DNA of 64,000 bases from a virus (Duplodnaviria > Heunggongvirae > Uroviricota > Caudoviricetes): the IMG/VR virus record IMGVR_UViG_2718218396_000003; one strand, written 5' to 3'. The position numbers are program-made. Below, in pieces: positions 6,001-9,000 of the stretch. Numbering within the stretch: the first letter of the stretch is position 1; each line of letters starts with the position of its first letter.

Positions 6001-9000
6001 CCCTGCAATGGCATATTGCATGGTGTGCTCCTTATTTATACATAACGAAAAACGCCTCGAGTGAAGCGTTATTGGTATGCGGTAACGCCGCGCTCAGGCG
6101 GCTTTGATAGTCATATCATCTGAATCAAATATTCCTGATGTATCGATATCGGTAATTCTTATTCCTTCGCTACCATCCATTGGAGGCCATCCTTCCTGAC
6201 CATTTCCATCATTCCAGTCGAACTCACACACAACACCATATGCATTTAAGTCGCTTGAAATTGCTATAAGCAGAGCATGTTGCGCCAGCATGATTAATAC
6301 AGCATTTAATAAAGAGCCGTGTTTATTGAGTCGGTATTCAGAGTCTGACCAGAAATTATTAATCTGGTGAAGTTTTTCCTCTGTCATTACGTCATGGTCG
6401 ATTTCAATTTCTATTGATGCTTTCCAGTCGTAATCAATGATGTATTTTTTGATGTTTGACATCTGTTCATATCCTCACAGATAAAAAATCGCCCTCACAT
6501 TGGAGGGCAAAGAAGATTTCCAATAATCAGAACAAGTCGGCTCCTGTTTAGTTACGAGCGACATTGCTCCGTGTATTCACTCGTTGGAATGAATACACAG
6601 TGCTGTGTTTATTCTGTTGTTTATGCCAAAAATAAAGGCCACCATCAGGCAGCCTTGTTGTAAATGTTGCAGGTATCAAGTAAGTAATTAGATGGAGCGC
6701 CATAAATTATGAATTCATCGTTTGTCGGGTCCATCTCCATCTCTTGTCCTATTGCCATTCTTGCGTCAGTGTCGTCAGCGGCGAAGCATAAAACAGCCCA
6801 CGCACCCATTGTTTTAAAAAGAACTGCAATTGGCTGTGGTTTTACTGAATTTGCGTTAGCGCGAAAATCACAAATCGCACTTTCATGAAATTCCATATAT
6901 CACCTCAAATAAGTGGTTTGCTGCCTAATTTCATTTTCTGGCGACCAACACAAGTCATCTTGCTGTCAGTTGTTTGGATTTACGGTAGCCTGCCGCGTAA
7001 AGAGCTACATTTGGAAGACAAGTTGAGCCTTCATATTTTCTGGTCAACGTTGTCAGTGTTATTACTTCTGCTCTCATTGCTGGTTTGCGTTTGCATTGTA
7101 AGACCACTCGTGATGGGGTTGGCCTGTGTAGTTTGTCGGAGCTAATCGCCTCCTGACTTTGCAGGTTTGCGCGACGAGCTCTACGGCGAGAAGCTGCGGT
7201 GCCTTTAAATTCTGTTTTTCTGGACATAGATTCCTCCCGAATAAACTTTGGCGATGCAATCTCGAAGCTCCTCCTGAGACGGTTGCTTCGGCATTGCATC
7301 CCACAGCTTATGTGGTTGGGTGATCTGGCTTTTCAGCCACGTAGTCGAGAGTCGACGTTGTTTAAAGAGCCTGCCAGTCTGTTCCATTTGGCTTCCAGCG
7401 TCCTGCTGATGGTTAAATAGTACGATATGTACTTCACTTGGTCAATACAATTTGTTCTAAAACGGGGCGTTTTTTTACAACGCTTTGTATTTAATAGTAT
7501 TGTTTTTTAGCGTGGGTGTATTGCCTCGGCGATGTAAGGAGAGATCAGAATTGCGTTGTTTAGTGAGTTGTATCTATTTATTTTCCAATAAATACAATTG
7601 GTTATGTGTTTTTTTGGGCGAGAGGAAAAGAAAACCCGGCATGGAGGCCGGGTTGATGATTAGCGGTGTGGCCTTGAGCGATAATGCTCACACACATGTT
7701 CAAGATTTCCATGCCTTATCCGTTCATAGGCATTCACATGAACTTCTCGATCGAATTGGTCATTCAAATTGTATGTAGACATCTGTGTTTTCTCATATTG
7801 GCGGCAGCCCTACAACCGCTTGAAAAAATGTACCAGACGCGCTAAGGTTACATCGCAAATATTGTGTACCTTAACAAGGGCTCCTTTTGGAGGCTCTGGT
7901 TAAACAGCATCAATGTCGGACTGGGGAGTTGGACATTGTGCTGAATGCTTTTGCATTATTGAGGCCGAACGTAAACCTTCAGAATTGAAGAGATGCGTTC
8001 GGCTTCTTCGTTTGTGATATCGTTAGGAATGCCTTTAATCGTTACTGTAACCCCTGATTCAGGTCGAAGAACTACTGGAAGATCATAGGTATGAAGTGCA
8101 TTAGCCTTGCCTTCGACTTTTGTTGGTTCGCCAGTCAAATCTTTTTCCTCACTGGATTCTTTGTCAATCGGAGTGTATGGGATTTCTTCACCAGACTGGA
8201 AAGCTACAAACTTTTTGATTGCACTTTCCATGCGGCTTTTATATGCAGTAATGCTGCTGTCGCTAGGCTTCGGCTCAGTTGCGTTGATGTATCGCTCGGC
8301 AAGCTCATTCACATCAAGCTGAGTAACATCACCCATTTCCTCTTCTTGGACTACCGTTAAGAGGCGAGCGGATGAGTTTTTTAAATTTCGAGCGGTGGCC
8401 TCCTTCATTATGTTCAGCGACATAAGCTCTTCAAGGAAGTCCTTGAATGCCTGCACGCTAACGTTTGACTTTGCCATTTGCTCTCTCTCTAAGTTATTGA
8501 CTCAGATCGAGTTTATCCAGGAATTGATTTGCATGCAAGACTCAAGTCTTGAGAATTTCCGTTCAAGATCCACTCTCAATAAAAAAGGCCGCACCTCTGC
8601 GACCTTTCATCTCCTAAATCTCTTTTCTCTTACCTAAAGAAACAGCAGGCTGGGTCAGCCCTAACAACTTCAAGTGCATCGGTCAGAGAAAGCTCCGTGC
8701 TATACAGGTGTTATTTCATATCTTTTTGCATCCAATAAATTTTCCATCTGTCCAGAGAGCGGATGCACTTGATTCTTGTTGATGGCAGGACGTTTTTTCA
8801 CCTGCCTCACCCTGCCATACAGGACGCTGCTCACCGATATCTATCGTCCGGTCATTGATGTTATAGACAATATCCAGATCATTACGGATATACTCAGATG
8901 GCCTTATGCTTTCAATGAATAGATGAACTTCTTTTTGACCGCTTGATACTCATGGCCATTAAACTCCATCTATCCTCTTTACCCAAACGTCTCTTCAGGC

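Follow-up and report, generated by a model that had tools for sequence, protein, structure and literature searches.

The subject of this analysis is a small cassette on the minus strand of a 64,000-nucleotide stretch of viral DNA (hereafter the window; IMG/VR record IMGVR_UViG_2718218396_000003, Caudoviricetes), which lies between the repressor gene cI and the pL/N region and whose larger gene (7956..8477) encodes a protein of 173 amino acids (aa). According to its structure model, this protein is a tyrosine-recombinase core-binding domain without a catalytic domain, followed by an acidic linker and a small beta-hairpin/helix module. The sequence supports the cassette as an autonomous accessory transcription unit at a variable cargo position between cI and pL/N of an Sp5-type Shiga toxin (Stx) prophage. 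We tentatively favour the reading that the 173-aa protein is a non-catalytic, probably dimeric nucleic-acid-binding regulator which acts on its own promoter and/or transcript and on a small partner protein. The gene is already listed in catalogues and one earlier study drew attention to it, and its bare existence is not new; no earlier report was found of the fold assignment, the neighbouring pseudogene, the two-gene anatomy with its conserved insulation, the extent and distribution of the family or the association with a partner open reading frame (ORF) and an RNA.

In a sequence comparison, window positions 7400-9000 were 100% identical to Stx-converting phages of Escherichia coli O157:H7, namely VT2-Sakai/Sp5, Stx1 and Stx2-II (strain Morioka), Nil2, 1717, 2851 and the PA series. 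The larger gene is listed there as H0093 (AP000422), ORF b63 (AP005153), ECs_1184 or ECs1184 (Sakai chromosome) and ORF23 of Sp5, and it is annotated as 'hypothetical protein' throughout the public phage and Sakai records. The original prediction, made from the sequence alone, had described a 173-aa acidic ORF co-oriented with cI and upstream of pL/N, and this was confirmed: the gene starts with ATG, its coordinates place it on the minus strand between cI and pL/N, and the product has an isoelectric point (pI) of 4.85 and a net charge of -8. Furthermore, 44 close homologues with 41-99% identity and a clear pattern of invariant residues were found in Escherichia, Cronobacter, Salmonella, Yersinia, Serratia and Morganellaceae, and the ratio of non-synonymous to synonymous substitution rates (dN/dS) against the Salmonella and Cronobacter orthologues was 0.12-0.25. 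Judged by these comparisons, the gene is real and under purifying selection.

The protein falls in phrog_2602 (function unknown). There was no significant match in Pfam, NCBIfam, PADLOC or the sequences of the PDB, its distant relatives likewise gave no significant library family, and a Foldseek search against viral structures returned nothing under E 0.2. The AlphaFold model had a predicted local distance difference test score (pLDDT) of 72 overall and of 86-91 over most of the N-terminal domain. In the model, residues 8-94 form four helices arranged as in the core-binding (SAM-like) domain of tyrosine recombinases, residues 102-127 an acidic disordered linker and residues 130-165 a beta-hairpin plus helix, a module which folds confidently alone (pLDDT 87). 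The N-terminal domain resembles those of lambda Int (2oxo/1z1b), IntI4 (2a3v), XerD (1a0p) and Cre (1kbu), the structure 3nrw and the Pfam family Phage_int_SAM_1 with its related families. A weak profile match of the 173-aa protein to Phage_int_SAM_1 (E 0.047) agrees with this fold, and 12 family matches among 107 relatives land on SAM-like Pfam models with E<0.01; the Pfam scores sit under the curated cut-offs. The profile and structure-prediction searches proposed along with the original prediction thus yielded no significant profile family but did yield a core-binding-like predicted fold, which supersedes the earlier statement that no motif could be assigned. The N-terminal helical domain of tyrosine recombinases is present but, unlike these enzymes, the protein ends at residue 173: after the linker only the 40-aa beta-hairpin/helix is left, the domain with the R-K-H-R-H/W-Y active site is absent, and Phage_integrase (PF00589) gave no match at E<=1. 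The order is core-binding domain, linker and small beta/alpha module, and the core-binding domain is acidic to neutral, unlike the basic ones of recombinases.

Because of this fold, we read the protein as non-catalytic and nucleic-acid-binding: it would do no chemistry of its own and act by binding nucleic acid, and the small C-terminal module probably joins two core-binding domains as a dimer. Basic positions within the core-binding helices (K33, R38, R62, K80 and R82) are conserved family-wide. The core-binding domain is neutral on average across the family, and 86% of the examined relatives have a basic linker, the clade of the window an acidic one. An integrase core-binding fold could also belong to a modulator of recombination, a protein that competes or pairs with the integrase at core sites and so affects excision or integration, and in Yersinia phage YP3 the homologue indeed lies directly downstream of xis and int, on the same strand. 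We consider such a role very unlikely: int and xis lie a long way from the gene in lambdoid prophages, many different phage backbones carry it, a search for att-like repeats in its vicinity gave none, and its chromosomal relatives do not stand beside recombinases.

Read along the minus strand, the cassette comprises an intrinsic terminator, a weak candidate sigma-70 promoter overlapped by a palindrome, the 173-aa gene, a structured spacer of 173 nucleotides (nt), the second gene H0092 and a second terminator. The upstream terminator (8578..8605, minus strand) has an 8-bp stem at 8586-8605 with the loop GAGG, followed by UUUUUUAUU with a T-run at 8578-8585 (dG -15.9 kcal/mol, z -3.5); a simple terminator scan missed this hairpin. 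In 16 loci retrieved from E. coli, Salmonella, Serratia and Proteus, the stem and the T-run precede the start codon by 100-180 nt; the stem is the same in all of them and the loop varies. At the same position Cronobacter has an unrelated, non-homologous terminator, and 933W, in which the stk operon follows DUF3024, has the stem but no T-run. Since the upstream terminator is kept or replaced in relatives, selection seems to favour halting cI transcription before the 173-aa gene. By its sequence, the upstream hairpin is the element that ends the cI/pseudo-DUF3024 transcript and insulates the cassette. Such a terminator between cI and the cassette sets it apart from rexAB, stk and bstA, and expression should therefore not depend on pRM; the 173-aa protein would be made in the lysogen independently of cI transcription.

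The original prediction had placed the gene about 500 bp from cI, behind a terminator-like hairpin. The hairpin stood, whereas the interval turned out not to be a mere spacer: the 501 bp between cI and the ORF hold a decayed DUF3024 pseudogene (8636..8969, minus strand), directly downstream of cI, with two frameshifts and one in-frame stop. A tblastn search with ST933Wp24 of 933W returned it as three fragments in three frames, with an in-frame stop and 81-83% aa identity, and its DNA is 81% identical to the cI-adjacent DUF3024 genes of 933W, phi24B, P27 and Salmonella SE1. Intact copies of this gene are present in phage SH2026Stx1 and in prophages of Proteus.

A candidate promoter read from the sequence (8510..8551, minus strand) consists of the hexamers TTGCAT (8538-8533) and TAAACT (8515-8510) with a spacing of 17. 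Salmonella, Cronobacter and Proteus have hexamers at the same place and with the same spacing, which in Proteus read TTGCAA-17-TAGAAT. A promoter scan of 8478-8585 gave no match of at least 9 of 12 to the consensus; the own promoter called plausible earlier is a weak candidate. The 16-bp palindrome CAAGACTTGAGTCTTG (8536-8551) overlaps the -35 hexamer of the candidate, and in Salmonella its arms are kept while its centre varies. The likeliest targets of the protein would be this palindrome, a case of autoregulation, and/or the RNA structure in the transcript of its own gene, and binding to the latter would set the expression of the small partner protein.

On the other side, the downstream intrinsic terminator (7623..7654, minus strand) comes 5 nt past the stop codon of H0092, a short way upstream of OL/pL. 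A terminator had been expected here, before pL/N, and it was found as a stem at 7633-7654 of 8 pairs, 6 of them G-C, with a U-rich tail (dG -14.3, z -3.5); AP000422 annotates it as rho-independent, and its homologous counterpart in 933W is the tM region. The cassette is bounded by pL/OL. The idea of a self-contained cassette was therefore upheld as to the terminators on both sides, but not as to a single gene, H0092 and the structured spacer having been missed.

H0092 (7660..7782, minus strand) encodes a 40-aa basic, His-rich protein which is annotated in AP000422 and matches phrog_21154 (E 5e-8). Its dN/dS was 0.06-0.10, it co-diverges with the large gene (43% versus 38% identity in SH2026Stx1), and in 37 of 86 loci it follows the large gene in the same orientation. 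The spacer between the two genes (7783..7955, minus strand) contains a strong hairpin (7905-7943) right after the stop codon. A fold of 182 nt at 7777-7958 had a minimum free energy (MFE) of -54.4 kcal/mol (z -3.6), and the first 81 nt of the spacer, the context of this hairpin, had an MFE of -24.4 (z -5.4). The hairpin is retained in Salmonella with an inverted apical loop: comparing window 7911-7938 with L027:4017-4199, the apical ten bases are ACTCCCCAGT in E. coli and, inverted, ACTGGGGAGT in Salmonella, and the stem is unchanged. A search of 7300-9800 against Rfam gave no match for the spacer; the only hit was GadY with 20 bits (E 0.66) at 7622-7751, over H0092 and the terminator, which is noise.

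A small same-strand ORF follows the large gene at a near-fixed distance in 67 of the 86 loci. Partners of the H92 type lie 176-195 nt from the large gene, as in the window, and those of the P57 type, present in 30 loci, 155-165 nt from it. P57 is a conserved arginine-rich protein of 57 aa with the motif RW.KCRFR..RAKAGTPDSER..LDAH.YGYKCWSF; examples are L072:4678-4851, L079:3775-3948, L007:6675-6848, L086:2640-2825 and others, and in several loci the gene was uncalled. Neither partner type matched Pfam, and a distant homology of H0092 and P57 was rejected (hhalign probability 0.1%).

The spacer of the P57-type loci is a conserved structured RNA of ~150 nt with 29 predicted pairs in five helices. 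Paired states were found in 94.6% of the cells compared to 36-47% with the partners slid, and compensatory changes occur in 12 of the 29 pairs, which was reached by 0 of 500 shuffles. Invariant G-U pairs point to an RNA of the sense strand. The P57-type RNA had no match in Rfam; it is found in prophages of Proteus and Serratia as well as in a lambdoid phage clade that carries the gene in the nin region, and the covariance model finds it after the gene in Serratia with 93 bits. Loci of this RNA are L067:4511-4685, L005:6517-6691, L003:6532-6703, L065:4532-4703 and 12 more (alignment A6, model R1). The core-binding protein, the structured RNA following its gene and the small basic protein encoded behind that RNA might make up an undescribed three-part accessory system of temperate phages. 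Its site would be the nin region or, as in the window, the lysogenic immunity region, and in it a recombinase-derived domain would be re-used to read nucleic-acid structure and to control a small effector. This wider proposal is speculative and, in our estimate, rather doubtful; if it is true, losing the large protein would be lethal to Sp5 lysogens.

The family of the 173-aa protein is large and unnamed. A profile search gave 667 clusters (50% identity), of which 246 had E<1e-10; throughout, the members share the two-domain layout and are 160-205 aa in length; a profile search of genome contigs with a narrow alignment gave one locus. Phage relatives at 52-100% identity, plus one pair at 35%, are located between an S24 repressor and N, and in a clade at 41-46% identity the gene follows the replication genes, within the nin region, and has the orientation of the lytic operon. 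More distant members, with about 25% identity (56-65% G+C, one of them from a Paracoccaceae genome), are lone chromosomal genes of the same two-domain build, which on the two longest contigs adjoin mfd, guaA, guaB or rsmB; many metagenomic contigs with distant relatives are too short to show the gene context. The chromosomal relatives L015:7001-7552, L017:7001-7546 and L018:1177-1743 are without a partner ORF and without the RNA.

At the position of the cassette, other phages carry other genes. Strain DA61218 has an identical cI (WP_001302016.1) and Cro, followed by a 185-aa protein and a DUF1828 protein, in UTAK-6 a 98%-identical cI is followed by a BRO-family protein, and 933W has DUF3024, a RuvC-like gene and stk. 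The earlier assignment of the gene to a rex/stk-like cargo position is borne out by these layouts. Within E. coli, cI at 99% identity or more was found in 452 records and the ORF in 234 genomes, in all of them with at least 99% identity. In Salmonella, a single protein of this family is found downstream of three different cI alleles, directly or behind intervening genes, and the neighbouring cargo comprises SieB and unknown genes. Some Salmonella prophages have unknown genes between cI and the cassette, encoding proteins of 345 aa (phrog_6191, L029:2236-3273) and 159 aa (L030:2815-3294); the interval thus accumulates cargo, with the cassette always nearest to pL.

An identical cI can be accompanied by other genes here, so we regard the cassette as exchangeable cargo, not core immunity; the variation seen in nature speaks against a core function in this immunity system. 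The cassette shares with morons the presence/absence between genes that are adjacent in relatives (DA61218 and UTAK-6; 452 records versus 234 genomes) and the flanking terminators (hairpins 8586-8605 and 7633-7654 with T/U tails, z about -3.5 each). Unlike typical morons, it has no atypical base composition, the G+C content across the cassette being 0.43-0.45, equal to the flanks. From its sequence, the cassette appears to be cargo at a repressor-proximal hot-spot, built on a recombinase-derived domain, and its biological role would be an accessory one (regulation or exclusion) outside the cI immunity switch.

Mondal 2016 constructed in-frame deletions of nearly all unknown genes of Sp5 in a K-12 lysogen, but deletions of ORF23 (ECs1184) and ORF21 (ECs1180) were not obtained; no conserved domain was found, and both were proposed to be needed for the maintenance of lysogeny (PMC5155283). 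Primers for the ORF21 and ORF23 constructs are not listed in the supplement (PMC5155283). Following that proposal, the 173-aa protein would be a second, integrase-fold repressor which silences the Sp5-type prophage or a lethal gene. Besides the two unobtainable deletions, the lysogen-side orientation of the gene is in line with this, as is the fact that the sole natural loss seen, in strain NE92, took N, pL and kil too. We nevertheless regard a maintenance function as improbable. Prophages with identical cI and Cro, and with N called at the same position, have unrelated genes instead, the gene is missing from about half of the E. coli records that have this cI (at least 99% identity), 933W and lambda do without it, and no second copy of the palindrome is located near any lytic promoter. 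ORF21 and ORF23 are also not co-distributed, with 403 versus 234 E. coli genomes and ORF21 not found in other genera, and a functional linkage of the two undeletable genes was rejected on this ground. Because ORF21 and ORF23 both flank pL-N, a technical cause of the failed deletions is possible: allelic exchange near pL-N may have disturbed OL/pL.

Integrase-derived master repressors are described for Bacillus phages: MrpR/YopR of SPbeta and SroF of phi3T have ~320 aa and contain both integrase domains, of which the catalytic one is degenerate. The 173-aa protein, unlike these, does not have the two-domain build of a master repressor but the core-binding domain only, a LexA-type cI is present beside it, and its gene is exchangeable cargo.

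A function in anti-phage defence or superinfection exclusion has to be considered, too; the original prediction had put the gene forward as a candidate for an anti-phage or lysogenic-conversion function. The position of the cassette matches that of lambda rexAB, 933W stk and BTP1 bstA, and it resembles rexAB, the DUF3024/RuvC-like/stk genes of 933W and bstA also in its orientation and in ending at a terminator before OL/pL; it has no sequence or fold relationship to any of them. The unit is insulated, in lysogen-side orientation and exchangeable with other cargo, and in Salmonella the cargo next to it includes SieB. Furthermore, a small two-gene unit, a promoter palindrome, flanking terminators, a presence/absence polymorphism and one gene reported as undeletable are reminiscent of type II toxin-antitoxin operons and of morons, and the 173-aa protein could sense or restrain H0092 in a toxin-antitoxin-like pair, which would also explain the failure to delete the large gene (ORF23) alone. 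Unlike type II systems, neither protein matches a toxin or antitoxin family, and the genes are not adjacent or overlapping but ~175 nt apart, separated by the structured RNA. No recognisable effector or toxin domain is present in either cassette protein, and a search of PADLOC-DB 2.0 gave no match at E<=1 for the 173-aa protein, H0092 or a 44-aa ORF within the pseudogene. The large gene persists without a detected partner in Serratia and in the chromosomal relatives, and many relatives lie in the lytic nin operon or beside housekeeping genes. Taken together, a defence function is possible but unlikely, and the lysogenic-conversion function found no support either.

We return to the nucleic-acid-binding regulator, for which we count the conserved insulation of the cassette, selection on both genes, the lack of an enzyme match, the C-terminal module, the conserved basic positions and the conserved palindrome arms, together with the exchangeability of the cargo, the partner ORF at a fixed distance, the P57-type RNA and the failed deletion of ORF23. 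Further, native ECs1184 of strain Sakai was found by Zammit 2025 in the RNA-associated proteome screen TRAPP with a false discovery rate of 0.065 (PMC7618764), which is also an indirect sign that the gene may be expressed from the repressed prophage. Several observations weigh against this reading. In the same study, radiolabelling of ECs1184-crosslinked RNA by polynucleotide kinase (PNK) was similar to the green fluorescent protein control (PMC7618764), and ECs1184 was for this reason called 'not a strong RBP'. The protein and its core-binding domain are acidic (net charge -8 and -4), which is unusual in a DNA binder, and the hexamers of the candidate promoter are weak. The palindrome, a candidate target of the protein, occurs once in the window, and allowing up to 3 mismatches revealed no further copy elsewhere in the prophage. 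As to the transcript, the covariance model of the P57-type RNA found only noise in the window even with filters off (5.3 bits in the spacer), and the H92-type and P57-type partners are unrelated in sequence. Finally, the small partner was not detected in the Serratia loci or the chromosomal relatives in the 86-locus survey, and a partner ORF is therefore not obligatory. The literature search found no other functional study of ECs1184/ORF23, and a transcriptome paper on phiPA8/phiO104 was rejected as data source because it concerns a different immunity type.

The genes flanking the cassette are as stated in the original prediction. cI (8979..9680, minus strand) was identified by its helix-turn-helix and Peptidase_S24 domain matches. 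Its mechanical ORF of 233 aa starts at TTG, and public records give 217 aa or 231 aa; because of these differences, the start (9680 versus ~9632, minus strand) is not fixed by the sequence. cro is located at 9749..9964 on the plus strand and N (N_peptide, E 2e-32) at 6955..7299 on the minus strand. The promoter pL and three OL operators (about 7417-7492, minus strand) are annotated in AP000422 and AP005153; a promoter scan gave pL as TTGACC-17-TACTAT at 7445..7417, and the OL operators had matrix scores of 15.8-19.6. A search with the operator matrix for additional cI operators inside the cassette gave only a match of half-site quality at 7590-7606. Sequences like the OL2 half-operator (AATACAATT) are present at 7590-7606, downstream of the terminator, and at 7756-7777, at the start of H0092, with scores of 12.5 and 7.8, far under the six annotated operators. 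ORF21 (ECs1180/H0090) corresponds to window 6645-6896 (minus strand), encodes 83 aa of phrog_2471 and lies just downstream of N; a cI-operator-like sequence at 6866-6882 (score 12.4) overlaps its 5' end.

Insertion sequences (IS) were seen in and around this region. In the window, an IS3-family element at 10555-11768 (plus strand) lies between cII and the replication gene, where Sakai Sp5 has none; its two overlapping ORFs of 108 and 296 aa resemble IS629/IS1203. In strain 9234 (L026 4560-5773), IS1203 is inserted directly upstream of the terminator hairpin of the cassette, and the gene persists though split from cI. In NE92 (L025 2748-3961), the region from gam through N to the cassette is lost and cI, cro, cII and the replication genes remain; the single copy of IS1203 at the junction fits a recombination between two IS copies.

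Stx phages are of medical importance, and for most of the cargo in their early regions no function is known. The 173-aa gene is one of only two early genes that resisted the systematic deletion study of Sp5, and it had no domain assignment. The fold, a family of hundreds of clusters and the partner ORF and RNA turn a hypothetical protein into testable questions: what it binds, whether its partner is toxic, and whether it affects induction, and thus toxin release, or the exclusion of other phages. The protein would also be another case of a recombinase fold re-used for a non-recombination role in lysogeny, alongside MrpR and SroF.

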